A stretch of DNA of 64,000 nt, from NCBI GenBank assembly GCA_023230925.1, contig JALNWK010000006.1:3515-67514 (forward strand). The letters run 5' to 3'. The stretch's first letter is position 1. Each line of letters opens with the position of its first letter. The notes beneath the pieces are model-generated. The model searched no databases, was not told where the DNA came from, and was given only the letters and a program-made list of their open reading frames with translations. Positions 19,259 through 38,543 of the stretch are shown in pieces. This DNA comes from Limnochordia bacterium (GTDB lineage: Bacteria > Bacillota > Limnochordia > DUMW01). Both the position numbers and the translations under genes were made by a program.

Positions 19259-21190
19259 TTAGTAGGGTGTAAGTTGCCAGTCACTAAAGACGGCTTTTCC
19301 GGTTTTGGTTGCCGCATGGGATGTTGAAGCTGGGCCGACCAACACCTTTTCTGGTAGGTCGATATCCACAGTACCCAACGTGACCCAGACTTTCCCGTCG
19401 AAGGACATTTGGCCTGTGACAGTGAATTCCCTGCGGATTAATTTCAAGTACACCGGCTCTCCATTAGTCCAAGAGACGCTCTTGACCTGGGTGGCATAGT
19501 CGCCTACCCCTTGCCGTTCTTGCATTACCAGACCATTCTTACCCGTACCTAGCACAGTGACGTTGGCTGATTCTGCGGTGGCCTCACTACGCAGCATGAT
19601 ACCTGATTTGGACCAGGGATCTGTATCCGGCGCGGAGTGGAGGCACAGGACTGCTTCGAAATCGCCTGCAACTTCCTGGTAGACAAATCCGAAGCCATCT
19701 CTGTATGACCAGATGTCGGCTCCTGCGGCCTCAATGACGAGCTTACCATCCTTTTGCACCACGGCTGACCCAGGTATTGCGGTGTTAAGGTCTTGACTTA
19801 TCCAGTCTTGACCTTGCCATTTCACTTCCCTGCGCACAGGTCCCTGGGCAGTTGATGCAAGGGTGCGATTCATGGCGGCGATGGCCTCAGACCAAGTAGG
19901 ACCAACAGGTGCGCCTTGATCGAAGATCTTTGTATACGCATCTTTAAAGGCCCTTTCACTGACCATCGGATCTGAGTAAATTACCTCTGGATGGGCGTAG
20001 GCCCCTGCGTCAGTGAAGACAAAAGTATTAATGTCATACACATCCATGTTTAGCACCCGCATGAGATCTAGGTACTCCGGTGCCACATCACGATGGGCCG
20101 GTGCTAAGGCCAGGTACTTGGCCTTGATTTCATTGGCCATTGGACCAGCGAGGAACTTCAACAGGGCGTATGCTTCTTCGGGATGCTTTGTATTCTTGTT
20201 GATCCCGTATCCGTCGTTGGTAGCTAAGGTGGAGCGCTCCCCTGAGGGACCAATGGGCATGGGGAACAGGTTCCACTCAAAGGAGACCTTTGGTCGCCCG
20301 TCCTTTTGTAGCCCGAGGAAGCTAACTAGGCTCCAGGACCCATCTTCCATAATGGCGGCTTGGCTTTGGAGCCAGCTTGTTGGGGCATTGGGCGGTGCCA
20401 TTACTTGGGATTCCCAACGAAGACCCTGCAGGAATTCTAAAGCCTCGATTGCTTGGGGATTATCCAGGGTACTTACTGTTTTCTCCTCGTTCCCATAAAA
20501 GTCTGTACCAGCGGCCTTCATCCAATAATGAATTCGATCAGTTGCGGTCATCCATTTGGTGAATCCCCACACATCGGTGACTCCATCACCGTCAATATCT
20601 TGGGTTAGTTTCTTGGCAATTGCTTCAAAATCTTCCCAGTCCATTGTGCTTTGATCGGCCCGCGGCTCGGGATTATGGATCCCATGAGCAGCGAACATAT
20701 CCGCATTGTAGTACATGGCGATGGTTCCTAAGTACTGGGGAAGCCCGAATAGCTGTTCTTGATGCTTGAACGCCTCAAACTGTGGTGGCCAATAGCATTG
20801 CTCTACTTCCTCGTAAATGCCATCCTTTTCTAGTAATGGTTTTAGGTCGACGAACCCGCCTTGCCTCCCTAAGTTGATAAAGGCATGTCCCATCCCATTG
20901 ACGATATCCGGTCCCTTTCCGCCGATGATCATTACCGTCATTTGCTCCATACTTCCTGTCCGGAAGACTAGATCAACATAAGGGTACTCCTTCTGGAATT
21001 CCTGGGTTAGGATCTCCGTCCATGGGGTGGTCCCATAGTCTTGTACTACGTTCACATTGGGATTACGTCCTGCTGTAAGGACGACTTCAAGGGTAATCCG
21101 TTCTTGCTCTGCATTTATGTGCGTAGGTAAGAGGATTACCGATAGCATACATACAAAGACTAACCAGCGACGAATACCTCTAAAATGCAT
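19259..21190 (-). CDS. secreted extracellular solute-binding protein (family 1 SBP) fused to a C-terminal ConA-like DUF1349 domain
   Basis: ATG at 21190 with an AAGGAGG RBS. Signal peptide MHFRGIRRWLVFVCMLSVILLPTHINA. About 400-aa SBP_bac_1-like core. C-terminal about 200 aa with GDFEAVLCL...SGIMLR, the DUF1349 / beta-xylosidase C-terminal lectin-like fold. No adjacent permease genes. Confidence 0.6.
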   Translation of the reverse strand: MHFRGIRRWLVFVCMLSVILLPTHINAEQERITLEVVLTAGRNPNVNVVQDYGTTPWTEILTQEFQKEYPYVDLVFRTGSMEQMTVMIIGGKGPDIVNGMGHAFINLGRQGGFVDLKPLLEKDGIYEEVEQCYWPPQFEAFKHQEQLFGLPQYLGTIAMYYNADMFAAHGIHNPEPRADQSTMDWEDFEAIAKKLTQDIDGDGVTDVWGFTKWMTATDRIHYWMKAAGTDFYGNEEKTVSTLDNPQAIEALEFLQGLRWESQVMAPPNAPTSWLQSQAAIMEDGSWSLVSFLGLQKDGRPKVSFEWNLFPMPIGPSGERSTLATNDGYGINKNTKHPEEAYALLKFLAGPMANEIKAKYLALAPAHRDVAPEYLDLMRVLNMDVYDINTFVFTDAGAYAHPEVIYSDPMVSERAFKDAYTKIFDQGAPVGPTWSEAIAAMNRTLASTAQGPVRREVKWQGQDWISQDLNTAIPGSAVVQKDGKLVIEAAGADIWSYRDGFGFVYQEVAGDFEAVLCLHSAPDTDPWSKSGIMLRSEATAESANVTVLGTGKNGLVMQERQGVGDYATQVKSVSWTNGEPVYLKLIRREFTVTGQMSFDGKVWVTLGTVDIDLPEKVLVGPASTSHAATKTGKAVFSDWQLTPY

Positions 21191-21911
21191 AATGACTACT
21201 CCTCCTTTAGATTGATAGACCCCAACCAGGGAAGGCTCTCCAGGTTTGCGATACTGCTTTTGATGACAACCCTCCTTCATATTCGACTGCAACCTGATCT
21301 GTCCCAGGCGTTTATATTCCTGTGTTCTGTAACTGATCTGTTCTAAGTGGCGGCGATTGTATAACAAAGAGTTTGTGCACCAAAACAATTGGCTGGGCTG
21401 TACGACGATGCTCTCGCGGTTTGATGGGCGTTGTTCAGCTTGACATTCATAAAGAATTTATTAATCGATGATTACATAAACATACTTCGCCAAAGGTTCA
21501 CGTTTTCCTGCAGTAATCGAAAGTTAATTGGTTCGAAAAAGAAGGCAGACGAACTAATCGAAGTGATGTGGCTGGTCATGTCATGATTGGTGAGGTTATC
21601 AAGTACGGGGATATGTGGGAGCCAAAGACTGGCTGCGTTGAGTAAGTGTGGTACATGATAAACTGTGGTAGCATAGAAAATCAAGAACATGCACGTGTGG
21701 CAGCATAGCCCAAGCTACATAGGATGGAGTTTTGGGAAGCAAAGCATCCGGTTCTAGATGGTTCTAGGGTCTCTTCTATTTCCAAAAACAGATGAGGCGA
21801 TACGGCATGGTAGCGATGAGAAGTTCAGCAGGAATATAGGGGTTTCATAGCCAACGTAGATAATGAAACGGAAATTTCTTCGTGCGACGCGGAGGTGGTG
21901 GTTTTTCGGCT

Positions 21912-22322
21912 ATGGAGTTGCGGACAGATGCATACCACGCCACCAAAGAAAAGGCTGCTTTAGAAATATGTGGAGGCGGTTTTGACTATACACGATGTTC
22001 AAAGAACAGTCGTTTAGGGCCTGGGGCGTATTTTTTCGATGACATTGACCGTGCGATCCGGTATACTAAGAATGCAAGCCACTTACGCGACCATCGGTGT
22101 TCGGTGCTCTCGTGTGTGATCCGTTGTTCGCCGGAACATTTACTGGACTTGACCAAAATAGCACAGCGGAACGAACTAAAAAGAGTCGTGGCTGTTATAG
22201 TCAAGAAAACACCTGAATTGAACAATAAACAAGCGGAATCGGTAGCGGTGCAGATGGTTTCAGAATCGCAAGGGGTTGGAGTGGTCAAAATGATCATGCC
22301 CTCAGGATGGAACAGGATATAA
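21912..22322 (+). CDS. hypothetical protein; candidate toxin of a TAC-like module
   Basis: 136-146 aa ORF (the track begins at GTG 21882) in an AT-rich islet. Motifs DAYHAT, GGGFDY, GPGAYFFDD and SPEHL occur in H...Y...E order, reminiscent of a minimal ART/KptA-like fold (speculative). Confidence 0.35.
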   Translation: MELRTDAYHATKEKAALEICGGGFDYTRCSKNSRLGPGAYFFDDIDRAIRYTKNASHLRDHRCSVLSCVIRCSPEHLLDLTKIAQRNELKRVVAVIVKKTPELNNKQAESVAVQMVSESQGVGVVKMIMPSGWNRI

Positions 22323-22464
22323 TAAACTAGGGTATATGAACGATGAGTATTTGATTTACTGTGTGAAGAGACCGGGATTTATTTTCGACGTTCGTGTGGC
22401 GAGATGTCACTCCGAGCTTGAGGGAGCGTAAAGGTATCAAGTTAAAAGGTGGAGGTGGGGAGAA

Positions 22465-22704
22465 GTGTTAACCCGTGAAATTGCTGATCGGTTGATCGAG
22501 CAATTTGAAAACATGTCAGAGGCGGATAGAGATGCTCTATTTGAGAGGGCCGGAGTACGATTTTTGGCCGATGACATCCAGGATCTCGTAGAGGAATATG
22601 AGCAAGAAGTCTGCTACTACAACCGCCTTTCTTCGTACCGGTTTGATTTTGCTGATGGGTTGAGTGCAAAAGGTATTTTTTTTACTGGTGTTGATGCCGC
22701 ATGA
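22465..22704 (+). CDS. small acidic protein; candidate antitoxin / chaperone-addicted partner
   Basis: GTG start after a GGTGGAGGTGGGG RBS. 79 aa, highly acidic, with an aromatic-rich C-terminus (YRFDFADGLSAKGIFFTGV). Its stop overlaps the start of the SecB-like gene (ATGA). Confidence 0.35.
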   Translation: MLTREIADRLIEQFENMSEADRDALFERAGVRFLADDIQDLVEEYEQEVCYYNRLSSYRFDFADGLSAKGIFFTGVDAA

Positions 22705-23180
22705 CGGGTCTAGATAAGATTAAGCGCGTGTTTGAATTCCGGTCCTATACAATTGAACAACTAGAGCTTTCGATAGACCCGGAGAGAATGTTTCGTAAGG
22801 ACGAGGAAATTGAGCTTAGGACGTTTTTGGGGAGATCACAAGTCCTAAGCGGCAGCGGGGATACGGGTGTTGTCCGTCTCTTCTGTCGAATCCAATCGGA
22901 TTTTCAAGATGAAGATACTCCTACGCTTTTGCTCAGCTTGACACTTCAAGGTCTTTTTGGATTTAATGACGAAGAGGAACTGCCTGTAGAGGTCAAAAAG
23001 GAATTGCTCGACAGGAACGCTGTTAGTGTACTGTTTCCTTATCTGCGCTCGACTATCAGCAGCGTCACACAGGCTGCAGGCATTCAGCCAATTGTTTTGC
23101 CTATCATCAATCCCGCTACAATAGATGAAGTTAGCCATAGTCCAACCGACAGTGTACAATCTGCTTCGGACAGCGAATAG
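22701..23180 (+). CDS. SecB-like chaperone (protein-export chaperone SecB family)
   Basis: 159 aa. The C-terminal block VSVLFPYLRSTISSVTQAAGIQPIVLPIINP aligns with E. coli SecB [29 protein letters not shown]. Upstream beta-sheet region (YTIEQLELSIDPERMF). Translationally coupled to the upstream small ORF. Confidence 0.65.
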   Translation: MTGLDKIKRVFEFRSYTIEQLELSIDPERMFRKDEEIELRTFLGRSQVLSGSGDTGVVRLFCRIQSDFQDEDTPTLLLSLTLQGLFGFNDEEELPVEVKKELLDRNAVSVLFPYLRSTISSVTQAAGIQPIVLPIINPATIDEVSHSPTDSVQSASDSE

Positions 23181-23390
23181 GTGGATGCGGTTTCGCCGGG
23201 TACAGGCCCCGGAATCTTCTGGGGCTTCTTCTACGTTCAAAAGTAGATGCTTTTGGTCCAGGTACATACCCGATCTGACTTTGCTGGGGTCTTGGATTGG
23301 GTACTTGCCATCCTTGCCTCATGGAAGTAGGACTGGTAAAATAGGATGAGGAACTGGCTTTGATCTTAGGCTAGACCGAATGAGAATGGG

Positions 23391-24155
23391 GTGGCTAGAT
23401 TGAAGAAGAAGTTACTGATTGGCATACTGGTGGTTTTGGTCCTTTTTACCTATATAACTCCCCTTAGTGCAAGGATAGATAGCATTGAGGAATATGTAAA
23501 GACAATCCTGGACACCTATACACTTTGGTTAGTCCATCTTGGTATAGATAACCTAGAGGTTGCCTCAGGCCAATTGGAGCAGGCTACCTCCAGTTACCCC
23601 GATGGCGCCCATCAGCACTTGCTCCTAGCCACGTCATACCTTGGTCAGGGCAAGGCGAAAGACGCGATCTCAGCCTACCAAAAGGTTGTAGATATGGGTC
23701 CTGAGTATTACTGGGTAAAGGCTCTTATTGGTGAGGTTTATTTGAAGCAGGAAGACTACGATCAGGCTGAAGAACTTTTCCTTGAAGTGATCGCAGAGGA
23801 TGAGAACTCGGCCCTTGCCCTAAAGGGTTTGGGTCTTTGCAGCCAGCATCGGCAGGAAGATGAAACTGCGATGGAGTATTACGAGCGGAGCTTGGAGATT
23901 GCTCCCAATGCTCCCGAAGTATATCTGGAATTGGCGTTGTTGAAAATCAAGGCGAATGAGCAGGAAGAAGCTCTGACGATTCTAGAGACCGGCAGGCTTT
24001 TCAATCTTGATGATCCTCGGATTCATTACTATCTTGGTATGCTGTATGAGGAAAAGGGAGATTTAGAGGCTGCTTCCCATGAGTATTACCGGGCGGTGCA
24101 GTTAGATCCCCAAAACGATCCAGCGGCAAAGCGCCTTGAGAATATGCCCAATTAA
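23391..24155 (+). CDS. membrane-anchored TPR-repeat protein
   Basis: N-terminal TM/signal anchor, then several TPR repeats (AISAYQKVVDMGPEYYWVKALIGEVYLKQEDYDQAEELF...). Confidence 0.6.
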   Translation: MARLKKKLLIGILVVLVLFTYITPLSARIDSIEEYVKTILDTYTLWLVHLGIDNLEVASGQLEQATSSYPDGAHQHLLLATSYLGQGKAKDAISAYQKVVDMGPEYYWVKALIGEVYLKQEDYDQAEELFLEVIAEDENSALALKGLGLCSQHRQEDETAMEYYERSLEIAPNAPEVYLELALLKIKANEQEEALTILETGRLFNLDDPRIHYYLGMLYEEKGDLEAASHEYYRAVQLDPQNDPAAKRLENMPN

Positions 24156-36114: not shown

Positions 36115-36897
36115 GTGTTAAGAGTTCTCATAGTTGATAATAATGCAGACTTATGCCAACAGCTAGAAGAATATCTCGCACAGTCGCCAGACATTGAACC
36201 CTGTGGTGTGGCCTATGATGGGGAGATGGCCCTTGAGTTAATCCAAGAACTCGAACCCGATGTGGTACTTTTGGATCTAACTATGCCTAAACTAGATGGT
36301 ATAGGTGTGATGGAAGGTCTGTCTAATTTAGACTTAGATACGTATCCGGATGTCATTGTGTTGACAGCCTTTGCCCGGGATGAAATGGTGGAGCGGATGA
36401 CCGAACTGGGCGCGAAATATTTCATTGTGAAGCCAATTAACCTGAGTATCCTAGCTGAACGGATCCGGCAATTCGGGGCGTCTGACAACTCGAACCAAAT
36501 GGGGGGAAGGTTGCCAAATAGTACCGCCTCACCCCTAGGTACAATTCGGCGTTCAGAGGCGATGCTTACAGATCTGCTGCACCAGATCGGGCTACCGTCT
36601 CATTTCAAAGGACATGTGTATCTAAGAGAAGCGGTGTTAATGGTTATGGATAACCCTGCCTTACTTGGAGGGCTGACGAAACAGGTTTACCCGGTGATTG
36701 CAGAGCGTCATAGTACTACGCCATCGGGGGTTGAATCTGCGATCCGAAATGCTCTTGTCACGGCATGGAATAGGGGTAACCGTGAGTTTCTGGTGACTCT
36801 GATGGGAATACATATGACCAACAACGGAGAGGCCCAAATGCCCACTAATTCCGTTCTTATAGCAAAGCTTGCGGATCGATTACGCCTAGCTAAGTAG
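36115..36897 (+). CDS. spo0A: sporulation master regulator Spo0A homolog
   Basis: Receiver domain (LIVDNN...LLDLTMPKLDG...LTAF...KP) plus a Spo0A-specific C-terminal DNA-binding domain. HFKGHVYLREAVLMV and ESAIRNALVTAWNRGN match Spo0A IKGYLYLREAI and ERAIRHAIEVAWSRGN. The start is uncertain; GTG at 36115 fits the usual Spo0A N-terminus, and ATG at 36052 or 36061 is also possible. Confidence 0.8.
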   Translation: MLRVLIVDNNADLCQQLEEYLAQSPDIEPCGVAYDGEMALELIQELEPDVVLLDLTMPKLDGIGVMEGLSNLDLDTYPDVIVLTAFARDEMVERMTELGAKYFIVKPINLSILAERIRQFGASDNSNQMGGRLPNSTASPLGTIRRSEAMLTDLLHQIGLPSHFKGHVYLREAVLMVMDNPALLGGLTKQVYPVIAERHSTTPSGVESAIRNALVTAWNRGNREFLVTLMGIHMTNNGEAQMPTNSVLIAKLADRLRLAK

Positions 36898-38410
36898 TCT
36901 GTGAACGGGTGCTTAGGCTTAGTCTCGGTAGCACAAACACCAAGAGTAGAAAGACGAGAAGCATCCGGGGTAGGGAATAAAGCAAGCTCCAGCCGTAAGC
37001 CCTAAGCGCAATAGTTGGACCATATTCGAAGAACAAATCAAGGTTATTCAGCCCAGCAATAAGGGTTAGCTTATCCTCGGTGAGTATGACTGACTGGATG
37101 AATTGGTATTGAGCAAAGCTCTGTGCGAAGGAAGTCAAGATTACCACAAGACAGGCAGGACCCAAATTGCTGGGCTGTCTGTGTGCAAAAAATAGTCGAA
37201 AGATGAAGATACTAAGGGGTGATGCGCCAAGAGTTAGCGCGATGGCCCAAAGGTTGTCAAATAATCCGATATTGAACAACACGATGCGCAGGAACGGTGT
37301 TAGTACCAAAGGGAAGAGGAAGAGGGGGGCTGTCAGAAACAGTGAGGCTACTCTACTTCCCACGGGCTTAATGACGTTGAGAGAATAGCCAGCCATAGCT
37401 CCCAGTAACAGCTGAAGCCCGGCGACTACCCCTCCGACTAAAAGACCGTTTGTGGTCCATCTACGAAAGGGAAGTCCTAGGGAGGATGGACCTTCGGAAA
37501 ACTGCTGCGCAATTAGCAAAGCCAACGTGGGCACAAGTAACAGTACCACTACGATTAAGGGAATATAGACCGCCCATGTGGGTTGTGTGCTGTTTTTCCG
37601 ATGGAGGGTGCTACTTGGAGCGAGCAGTGGTTGTTGTTGCTCCATGATCCACCACACAACAATACCTAAAATGAGTAAAGGGATAGCGAGAACTACACCA
37701 GCGGCAGCGGCTAATTCCTGGGCGGTCACGCCCCCTTGGAGATTGGTGTTGATAAACGCAGCGATGGTTTGGTCTAATACCAAATGGCTGGTTACCAAGC
37801 CAAAGGCTAGGAAGAAGATAATGCTCAAAGCAAAGGCCGATGGTTGACTGGCATATTTAAAGGTATTGTTCTCCGTTAGGCTGGTAATGACGTATCCAAG
37901 TAATATGGCTAAGGGCAGGATGAAAAGTCCATCAAGGACGATCCCCTTAAGTAAAGCCAGGGGACCGGGGCCGAAAATTCCAAGATTTATGTTTCGGCTT
38001 AATAGAAATATATACGATCCTTGGAAAATACCATAGAAAAGACCTGCTGAACCAAGGAGGGTAACTAGGCTTAAGGATAACTTGTACAGGTTTGACTGAT
38101 TGCGATATGAGGCACTACTGTGACCTAACCAAAGGCCAAGACCTGTAAAAACCAACTTGCCAAGGACAACGAAGACTGTTATTTTAAGGGAATGGTTAAA
38201 GGTCCCATCGGCAAAGAGGGTTTGGAAATGAGCTAGACCCACGTACGTGCTTCTTGCTCCGGCTAAGTCGATAGCAGACATGCTCATCCGCACTAGTCCA
38301 ACCAAGGGCATCCAGCTAAAAAAGCCGATGGCAACACAGGCGGGAAGCAGGAGAAGCCAGCCTAATAGGCTGCTGAATAATCGTGTAGTGAAACGACCTT
38401 CATTAACCAT
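36890..38410 (-). CDS. polytopic membrane protein (12+ TM), unknown function; possibly a fused transporter permease
   Basis: 506-aa highly hydrophobic ORF. No confident family assignment. Confidence 0.35.
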   Translation of the reverse strand: MVNEGRFTTRLFSSLLGWLLLLPACVAIGFFSWMPLVGLVRMSMSAIDLAGARSTYVGLAHFQTLFADGTFNHSLKITVFVVLGKLVFTGLGLWLGHSSASYRNQSNLYKLSLSLVTLLGSAGLFYGIFQGSYIFLLSRNINLGIFGPGPLALLKGIVLDGLFILPLAILLGYVITSLTENNTFKYASQPSAFALSIIFFLAFGLVTSHLVLDQTIAAFINTNLQGGVTAQELAAAAGVVLAIPLLILGIVVWWIMEQQQPLLAPSSTLHRKNSTQPTWAVYIPLIVVVLLLVPTLALLIAQQFSEGPSSLGLPFRRWTTNGLLVGGVVAGLQLLLGAMAGYSLNVIKPVGSRVASLFLTAPLFLFPLVLTPFLRIVLFNIGLFDNLWAIALTLGASPLSIFIFRLFFAHRQPSNLGPACLVVILTSFAQSFAQYQFIQSVILTEDKLTLIAGLNNLDLFFEYGPTIALRAYGWSLLYSLPRMLLVFLLLVFVLPRLSLSTRSQTT

Positions 38411-38465: not shown

Positions 38466-38543
38466 TGGTCGGGGTGGCGAGATTTGAACTCGCGGCCTCA
38501 TCGTCCCGAACGATGCGCGCTAGCCAAGCTGCGCTACACCCCG
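38466..38543 (-). tRNA. tRNA-Pro (anticodon CGG), CCA encoded
   Basis: The reverse complement folds as a canonical cloverleaf. Acceptor CGGGGTG/CACCCCG, D-arm GCGC-AGCTTGGCTA-GCGC, anticodon stem CATCG with loop TTCGGGA (anticodon CGG), T-arm GCGAG-TTCAAAT-CTCGC, discriminator A and a 3' CCA. Confidence 0.9.

Follow-up and report, generated by a model that had tools for sequence, protein, structure and literature searches.

Organization of the locus

In the present study, a window of 64,000 nucleotides (the whole stretch of DNA analysed) was found to carry three consecutive open reading frames (ORFs) on a single strand, in the order toxin, antitoxin and chaperone. The genes and associated features are as follows; L numbers denote related loci.

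21882-22322 (GTG start, 146 aa) or 21912-22322 (ATG start, 136 aa), forward strand: ORF1, toxin-like, a truncated cmdT-like ADP-ribosyltransferase gene
22294-22433, forward strand: 3' part of the ancestral toxin gene, now displaced into the +1 frame, in which it is open and codes for ...QDGTGYNKLGYMNDEYLIYCVKRPGFIFDVRVARCHSELEGA up to the ancestral toxin stop, TAA, at 22431-22433
22303-22314, forward strand: junction left by the loss of 14 bp that are present in L003, with the break at about 22308/22309 between ...CCCTCAGGAT and GGAACAGG..., as seen when the DNA of the window is aligned with that of L001, L002 and L003
22452-22458, forward strand: ribosome-binding site GGAGGTG, 6 nt 5' of the antitoxin GTG and kept in L003
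22465-22704, forward strand: cmdA-like antitoxin ORF, 79 aa, GTG start, acidic and conserved towards its N-terminus, with an aromatic tail (CYYNRLSSYRFDFADGLSAKGIFFTGVDAA) whose last two residues are Ala-Ala
22676-22683, forward strand: T8 homopolymer inside the 3' end of the antitoxin gene, T7 in L001 and L002
22701-23180, forward strand: cmdC-like chaperone ORF of the SecB type, 159 aa

The three ORFs of the original prediction are thus present with the sizes given there, and the antitoxin and chaperone genes overlap in the sequence ATGA. The tripartite toxin-antitoxin-chaperone (TAC) module with a SecB-like chaperone, as it had been proposed, is borne out by this gene order together with the Pfam, PADLOC and PDB profile matches described below. 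The generic TAC arrangement is observed, namely a SecB-type chaperone gene directly 3' of, and coupled to, an antitoxin with a C-terminal extension. The module lies in a low-GC stretch bounded by rqcH and a Ca-ATPase gene in a Bacillota-type chromosome. Scans of positions 21300-23500 for promoters, terminators and repeats revealed nothing convincing, with no clear sigma-70 promoter 5' of the toxin and no att-like repeats.

The SecB-like chaperone

The SecB block predicted in the 159-aa protein is real and above chance. The protein exceeded the gathering cut-off of Pfam SecB PF02556 (28.3 bits against 26), and a profile of the chaperone family searched against the PDB returned E. coli SecB as the best match (E = 1.7e-3), with H. 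influenzae SecB and Mycobacterium tuberculosis Rv1957 (E = 0.069) also among the top matches. In this comparison, the block LfpYLRs...iqPivlPvin pairs with the C-terminal block of E. coli SecB. The SecB domain of the E. coli and H. influenzae proteins (PDB 1qyn, 5jtl and 1fx3) aligns over approximately residues 26-140, including the LFPY-R motif. Only the family profile recovered SecB from the PDB, a search with the single chaperone sequence finding none, and the AF2 model (pLDDT 46.6) did not confirm a SecB fold. The PADLOC CmdC model PD-T4-9_C covered residues 10-145 at an E-value of 4.2e-16 (57.4 bits), and the phage protein family phrog_21664 matched at 6e-14. PD-T4-9_C likewise matches the chaperones encoded by L008 and L012.

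The Pfam match might also be read as that of a housekeeping SecB export chaperone with unrelated neighbours. However, the probability of this reading is close to nil: the NCBIfam SecB equivalogs (TIGR00809, NF00439x) scored only 15.7-29.2 bits, far under their cut-offs of 102.8-223, the CmdC score is twice the Pfam SecB score, the gene is translationally coupled to an antitoxin in a toxin-antitoxin operon and not in a secB housekeeping context, and the trio of genes is kept in distant relatives.

The antitoxin

The 79-aa antitoxin was predicted to be acidic with an aromatic C-terminus, consistent with the composition observed herein (pI 4.17; 18 Asp and Glu versus 8 Lys and Arg; 7 of the 11 aromatic residues within the last 31). 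The C-termini of the family end in Ala-Ala in six of seven members and in Leu-Ala in the remaining one (L009), and the ChAD of CmdA also ends in Ala-Ala (Mets et al., bioRxiv 10.1101/2024.02.24.581848). Judged by its sequence, the Ala-Ala terminus is a CmdA-like end of the ClpX-degron type, the features of the protein would fit the CmdA layout of N-terminal helices followed by a disordered, aromatic ChAD, and the suggestion that the antitoxin carries a C-terminal addiction-type tail is likewise supported. Searches of the Pfam, NCBIfam and PADLOC profile libraries, including the PADLOC CmdA model (PD-T4-9_B), yielded no significant match for this protein. An NCBIfam match to ZorA was non-significant (E = 0.19) and was rejected.

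Assignment of the toxin family

The original prediction of an ART-type toxin is supported by a Pfam PARP match of ORF1 (26.7 bits, exactly at the cut-off) and by profile links to CmdT-like ADP-ribosyltransferases (ARTs); ORF1 has an ART fold. The His (AYHAT) and Tyr (GAYFF) motifs of ORF1 are kept and fall on invariant columns of the CmdT-like family. The checks of whether the 159-aa protein is other than SecB-like and whether the upstream ORFs match housekeeping families unrelated to toxin-antitoxin systems, both named in the original prediction as refuting, came out in favour of a tripartite module with a SecB-like chaperone and an ART-type toxin. Nothing favoured the suggested KptA-like enzyme over the PARP/diphtheria-toxin-type ARTs, and a match to PF01885 was not obtained. 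Other toxins of toxin-antitoxin systems with an ART fold, namely MbcT/RES (6fkg), ParT (6d0h) and DarT (7omu, 8baq), differ in their motifs (R-E-S in the case of RES) or target (DNA thymidine in the case of DarT) and are only 8-11% identical to the window toxin; none has a SecB-like chaperone partner, and Pfam places the window toxin in PARP, not in RES.

No PADLOC or NCBIfam model matched the window toxin, and the PADLOC CmdT models were unmatched even by the reconstructed toxin; a PDB search with the single toxin sequence gave nothing significant (PARP10 at E = 0.12). A word-indexed homologue search returned only two toxin relatives and four chaperone relatives, and the bridge to the CmdT-like proteins was obtained by exhaustive search, not by word-indexed search. 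The exhaustive search ties the window toxin to the small ARTs P0014, P0015, P0017 and P0019, which match PADLOC PD-T4-9_A. In addition, hhalign of the window toxin clade against 50 CmdT-like proteins, 47 of which match PD-T4-9_A, gave a probability of 99.6% and an E-value of 1.9e-23, with 157 columns aligned and the displaced tail among them. This profile-profile and transitive evidence argues that the window toxin is homologous to CmdT. The toxin clade is rare, with only three clusters at E <= 1e-10 among 1.84 billion representatives.

A 14-bp deletion in the toxin gene

A single intact toxin ORF with all three catalytic positions is absent from the window. The toxin of 177 aa is intact in L003 and L004, and the window, L001 and L002, three independent assemblies, share the 14-bp deletion and the TAATAA double stop that the frameshift creates at the end of ORF1. 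L001 and L002 are independent metagenome contigs and can be regarded as independent data because single-nucleotide differences separate both of them from the window. The gap of approximately 140 nt described between the first two ORFs is therefore not intergenic, as its +1 frame codes for the conserved C-terminus of the toxin, about 40 residues long. Within this displaced tail, the segment NDEYLIYCV bears the Glu (of NDEY) that is predicted to be catalytic, and the ICV strand conserved at the C-terminus lies in the tail as well. The product stops at residue 136 and lacks its last 40 or so residues, among them the strand that bears the third catalytic residue; on its sequence, the window toxin is therefore most likely inactive.

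The original prediction had described the ORF of 136-146 aa as a toxin with DAYHAT, GPGAYFF and PEH motifs in H-Y-E order. The three motifs are present; the ORF is not a complete toxin, and the third catalytic residue, which had been placed at the Glu of PEH, lies instead in the displaced NDEYLIYCV segment. An intact and working TAC, in which ORF1 is complete, the PEH Glu is catalytic and the 140 nt are a spacer, might be proposed on the basis that ORF1 alone attains the Pfam PARP cut-off and that two further assemblies contain the same ORF of 146 aa. However, we consider this very improbable. The toxins of L003, L004 and L008 continue without interruption into a C-terminal segment that is conserved and that is encoded in the +1 frame in the window. 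When this segment is aligned with the CmdT-like family, it matches the ICV strand conserved at the C-terminus of that family. PEH sits just ahead of the conserved LDL motif, at positions not conserved across the family, and a double stop immediately past a 14-bp indel is what a frameshift typically leaves.

The displaced tail is stop-free, with a dN/dS of 0.07 relative to L003, suggesting that the disruption is recent. The stop-free and conserved condition of the tail would fit a recent event and would also allow some recoding. The locus probably belongs to the CmdTAC (PD-T4-9) family as a divergent representative and is a recently disarmed remnant, with a frameshifted toxin and, in the window, intact genes for the antitoxin and the chaperone.

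Relatives of the locus

The toxin-antitoxin-chaperone order was also observed in L003, L004, L008 and L012; the toxin of L008 is 38% identical to that of the window, and the toxin of L012 is the CmdT-like protein P0017. A phage-type HNH endonuclease adjoins the intact L003. A scan of genome contigs and scans of viral contigs revealed no close relative, and tblastn against phages gave one weak partial match. Neither the antitoxin nor the chaperone shows damage in the window, L006 or L007. The T7 tract of L001 and L002 shifts the antitoxin frame, with loss of the ...GVDAA terminus, and the chaperone of these two loci carries A107V at an otherwise invariant residue. Within the lineage, the changes in the antitoxin and chaperone (three nonsynonymous, one synonymous and one indel) are not numerous enough for a test of relaxed selection.

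Comparison with known systems

CmdTAC (PD-T4-9) has been described in E. coli ECOR22 and O112ab:H26 (Vassallo 2022, PMC9519451; Vassallo 2024, PMC11618068; Mets 2024, bioRxiv 10.1101/2024.02.24.581848), and homologues in Gram-positive species were reported by the same authors (PMC9519451, PMC11618068, bioRxiv 10.1101/2024.02.24.581848). The window locus shares with this system the gene order, a small ART of the PARP/diphtheria-toxin type with the triad H-Y-[E/D/Q], a small antitoxin with an aromatic and putatively disordered tail ending in Ala-Ala, a SecB-like chaperone matched by the PADLOC CmdC model at 4e-16, and the association of relatives with prophages. Several differences have also been observed. 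The window toxin clade is very divergent, rare and without a direct PADLOC CmdT match, the PD-T4-9_B profiles reveal no recognisable homology between the antitoxin and CmdA, the host chromosome is of the Bacillota type, and the toxin gene bears the 14-bp frameshifting deletion, so that the system is probably dead.

A SecB-like chaperone that guards an antitoxin through a C-terminal addiction tail is also found in HigBA1-SecB(TA) of M. tuberculosis (Rv1955-Rv1957), and that tail likewise makes contacts through aromatic residues and ends in an aliphatic ClpXP degron (Bordes 2011, 2016; Texier 2021, as cited in later papers); its chaperone Rv1957 is the PDB match noted above. However, the toxin of this system is the RNase HigB and not an ART, the antitoxin is of the HigA helix-turn-helix type, and both the gene order and the antitoxin fold differ from those of the window.

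In E. coli CmdTAC, the ADP-ribosyltransferase toxin is bound and neutralised by the small antitoxin, whose disordered aromatic Ala-Ala tail renders it a ClpXP substrate unless the tail is held by the SecB-like chaperone tetramer. Upon infection, a phage structural protein displaces the antitoxin tail from the chaperone by competition, the antitoxin is degraded, and the free toxin ADP-ribosylates mRNA, resulting in the block of translation and the abortion of infection (PMC11618068; bioRxiv 10.1101/2024.02.24.581848). By analogy, the intact form of the window system would follow the same biochemical mechanism, and the ClpXP and phage-trigger steps may apply to the window family as well. In the window, the deletion near 22308/22309 has shifted the toxin frame, most likely leaving a disarmed remnant in which the antitoxin and chaperone genes are still intact.

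Significance of the probably disarmed locus

The locus is most likely not a new kind of system. The pair of an ART toxin and a SecB-like chaperone, which had been put forward as a new cargo for such chaperones, is that of the published CmdTAC (PD-T4-9), and no new mechanism is involved, the design and its mode of action having been published in 2022-2024. Nevertheless, several points are of interest. First, the range of CmdTAC-type defence includes a rare clade of high divergence in a chromosome of the Bacillota type, as well as, incidentally, methanogen genomes. Second, this clade is missed by the PADLOC toxin and antitoxin models and is detected by the chaperone model alone. Third, the locus would provide a clear case of a defence toxin disarmed while the antitoxin and chaperone persist, which bears on counts of "functional" defence systems made from chaperone or partial matches. 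For annotation, the 146-aa ORF is best flagged as a pseudogene that arose by a frameshift, rather than as a small toxin of a new type.

Possible retained immunity or recoding

Explanations beyond simple decay are unlikely, namely that a rare +1 slip at CCC-U (22299-22302) might yield trace amounts of full-length toxin, as an attenuated abortive-infection switch, or that the antitoxin and chaperone might form an anti-addiction TAC remnant. In the form in which selection keeps the antitoxin-chaperone pair after toxin loss, as protection against an intact copy on an incoming prophage or plasmid, this immunity is rather improbable. The HNH endonuclease beside L003 and the phage families matching the toxin and the chaperone indicate that mobile intact copies exist, and the undamaged antitoxin and chaperone of the window, L006 and L007 are consistent with such selection. 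However, the antitoxin frameshift and chaperone A107V of L001 and L002 look like ongoing decay, the toxin tail is also undecayed, so that too little time has elapsed to tell, and the few changes in the antitoxin and chaperone within the lineage offer little guidance.

A recoded toxin appears highly doubtful. Here, the peptidyl-tRNA-Pro would slip by +1 from CCC (22299-22301) to CCU and restore the frame of the tail, giving ...MIMPQDGTGYNKLGYMNDEY..., or the enzyme would be split, with an ATG at 22336 opening MNDEYLIYCV..., and the module would be functional and attenuated. Between 22294 and the ancestral stop, no stop codon interrupts the +1 frame, which is still fully conserved, the CCC-U site is placed exactly where a +1 shift would work, and the antitoxin and chaperone of the window are intact. 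However, a stimulatory element is missing, the codon that follows CCC is UCA, which is neither a slow codon nor a stop, and the ATG at 22336 lacks a convincing Shine-Dalgarno sequence. Moreover, intact relatives need no frameshift, which points to an accident and not a conserved mechanism, the frameshifted product would still be without five loop residues, and the antitoxin of L001 and L002 is also frameshifted, a state that an active toxin would make lethal. The trans-frame peptide expected from such a slip is predicted to be MIMPQDGTGYNK.

Operon layout and family assignment

Three co-oriented ORFs had been predicted, and the ORF listing and direct reading of the sequence bear this out.

Features of the module and of the gene preceding it
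19259-21388, minus strand: 709-aa SBP_bac_1-DUF1349 protein, between rqcH and the module
21882 (GTG) or 21912 (ATG) to 22322, plus strand: toxin-like ORF, 146 or 136 aa
22465-22704, plus strand: antitoxin ORF, 79 aa; GTG start, with a GGAGGTG ribosome-binding site 6 nt before
22701-23180, plus strand: chaperone ORF, 159 aa; ATG overlapping the antitoxin stop as ATGA

First, the SecB-like block quoted for the 159-aa protein is real (Pfam SecB, 28.3 bits; gathering cut-off 26), and PADLOC PD-T4-9_C, the CmdC model, matched residues 10-145 at double that score (57 bits, 4.2e-16). The top PDB sequence matches of the chaperone-family profile, aligned over about residues 26-140, included E. coli SecB (5jtl, 1qyn; E 0.0017), H. 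influenzae SecB (0.0042) and the M. tuberculosis TAC chaperone Rv1957 (0.069). That the protein is a housekeeping SecB can be practically dismissed, as it scores far under every cut-off of the NCBIfam housekeeping-SecB models. It also matches the phage protein family phrog_21664, and is 72% and 65% identical to the chaperones of two relatives with an intact toxin, L003 and L004, respectively.

Second, the toxin-like ORF scores at the Pfam PARP cut-off (26.7 bits) and matches phrog_14664. An exhaustive HMMER toxin search of 1.84 billion representatives gave only 16 matches at E<=1e-3, among which the small proteins (P0014, P0015, P0017 and P0019) match the PADLOC CmdT model PD-T4-9_A. A profile built from these four retrieved 280 proteins of about 170-215 aa; 47 of 50 sampled matched PD-T4-9_A, and hhalign aligned the toxin clade of the window with the 50 nearly end to end (99.6% probability, E 1.9e-23, 157 columns). 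The toxin-antitoxin-chaperone order recurs in the more distant locus L008 (38%-identical toxin, 78-aa ORF, 149-aa SecB-like protein) and around P0017 in L012, and both chaperones match PD-T4-9_C.

Third, the 79-aa protein is acidic with an aromatic C-terminus, as predicted (pI 4.17; 7 of 11 aromatic residues within the last 31), and ends in ...GVDAA. Antitoxins of the family had no match in the profile libraries; their C-terminus is Ala-Ala in six of the seven examined and Leu-Ala in the other (L009). The Ala-Ala terminus of the CmdA chaperone-addiction tail has been tied to ClpXP-dependent triggering (Mets et al., bioRxiv 10.1101/2024.02.24.581848). Because of the chaperone and toxin profile matches, the recurring operon and the antitoxin Ala-Ala ends, the locus is, judged by sequence, a divergent CmdTAC.

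The original prediction of a new cargo for a SecB-like chaperone therefore falls, since an ART toxin with such a chaperone is exactly the published CmdTAC design. CmdTAC, originally named PD-T4-9 (bioRxiv 10.1101/2024.02.24.581848), was discovered in 2022 (PMC9519451), its mechanism was solved in 2024 (PMC11618068; bioRxiv 10.1101/2024.02.24.581848), and its authors noted homologues in Gram-positive bacteria (PMC11618068). Novelty is modest and lies in two points: the PADLOC CmdT and CmdA models miss this toxin and antitoxin clade, which is rare and very divergent, and a toxin-gene inactivation is documented in which antitoxin and chaperone are kept.

Probable inactivation of the toxin

The supposed spacer of about 140 nt upstream of the antitoxin gene is the displaced toxin tail, which reads ...QDGTGYNKLGYMNDEYLIYCVKRPGFIFDVRVARCHSELEGA and then a stop in the +1 frame. 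L003 and L004 encode a single uninterrupted 177-aa toxin, ...VVKMIMPQGF(L/Q)(E/Q)SKRTGYDKLGYMNDEYL(I/V)YCVKKPGFVFDV..., and the L008 toxin is likewise intact when a TTG start is taken. The DNA alignment reveals a 14-bp deletion in the window at about 22308/22309, which produces ...MIMPSGWNRI followed by TAATAA. The deletion is a real allele, not an assembly error, because it is shared by L001 and L002, JGI metagenome contigs that match the window at 99.7-99.8% identity yet carry distinguishing SNPs.

In alignment, the displaced tail corresponds to the conserved C-terminal strand of CmdT-like proteins, where ICV is nearly invariant. From this alignment and general knowledge of ART folds, the Glu of NDEY is predicted to supply the third residue of the CmdT triad, H-Y-[E/D/Q] (PMC11618068). 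PEH, earlier proposed as the triad Glu, lies in non-conserved columns ahead of the LDL motif, and an intact short toxin using it is thus very improbable. Equally doubtful is an active enzyme that is split, or recoded through a +1 slip at CCC-U (22299-22302). The truncated toxin, which is without the catalytic strand, is most likely inactive. The disruption appears recent, because the tail has a dN/dS of 0.07 against L003, equal to the antitoxin and chaperone values, and has acquired no further stops. Thus, this degenerate CmdTAC member is most likely an antitoxin-chaperone remnant after toxin loss; retention of the two genes by selection as anti-addiction immunity is improbable.

Decay may be ongoing. 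Near the 3' end of the antitoxin gene, the T8 homopolymer at 22676-22683 is one nucleotide shorter (T7) in L001 and L002; the resulting frameshift eliminates the ...GVDAA terminus and yields an 83-aa call overlapping the chaperone. True decay, phase variation and homopolymer error are all possible causes. The L001 chaperone also carries A107V at an invariant position, and together these very few variants hint at continuing decay.

Automatic gene calls clip intact toxins at an internal ATG (L008 6001-6474, L003 358-660, L004 667-969; 157 or 100 aa versus about 177-179 aa intact), and the His motif is therefore under-represented in database entries for the family.

Proposed mechanism of the intact form

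For the intact ancestral form we adopt the published CmdTAC mechanism, with all biochemistry by analogy; what is seen directly at this locus is limited to architecture, homology and the Ala-Ala end. The antitoxin would both aid folding of the ART toxin and neutralise it, and a SecB-like tetramer would keep ClpXP away from the antitoxin C-terminal tail. A phage structural protein, which in E. coli CmdTAC is the T4 major capsid protein (PMC11618068; bioRxiv 10.1101/2024.02.24.581848), would compete for the chaperone; upon antitoxin degradation, the toxin would ADP-ribosylate mRNA, stopping translation and aborting infection.

Genomic context and related modules

Upstream lie purN, purH and purD, then an RqcH/FbpA-like gene and the SBP_bac_1-DUF1349 gene (both minus strand), the latter encoding an extracellular solute-binding domain fused to a C-terminal DUF1349; downstream lie genes for a TPR protein and a Ca2+ P-type ATPase, a YloC-family gene, gmk and priA. 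The neighbourhood reads as Bacillota-type core chromosome on the basis of the known B. subtilis yloA-yloB-yloC synteny. The stretch that holds the module has a lower G+C content (0.44-0.47) than the flanks (about 0.52). No integrase or flanking repeats were found around the module, and the scan of GTDB species representatives revealed no close relative that carries it. Intact relatives seem to be mobile or linked to defence, given the phrog_14664 and phrog_21664 matches, a phage-type HNH endonuclease directly downstream of the L003 module (Pfam HNH 5.6e-10; about 1440-1810) and an AAA_15/AbiEii-type ATPase gene downstream of a related chaperone (L005 996-1391), which suggests a defence-island setting. 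The L003 endonuclease gene has an in-frame TAG stop.

At 21750-21771, some 140 nt ahead of the toxin start, is a tandem 10-nt direct repeat, GGTTCTAGAT GGTTCTAGGG, that contains a TCTAGA palindrome; this possible operator is not conserved in L003. Elsewhere in the window, a 506-aa ORF with no Pfam match (36890-38410, minus strand) interrupts a forward-strand region and adjoins its sole tRNA gene (38469-38543, minus strand).

In two methanogens, a CmdT-like ART with YHGT / FHGT ... G.G.YFF motifs precedes a small ORF, with a SecB-like chaperone third (Methanothermococcus MAG, L015 4854-6267; Methanimicrococcus blatticola DSM 13328, L017 4926-6435); these are predicted CmdTAC-type modules in archaea. 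A different SecB-like-chaperone module was observed in L013 316-1648, L014 5205-6420 (Phocaeicola MAG), L016 4868-6204 and L019 5182-6387 (IMG/VR), comprising a protein of ~133-157 aa with an R..ADY motif (phrog_5176, a family of unassigned function), a partner of ~129-190 aa ending in AA or AS, and the chaperone gene third.
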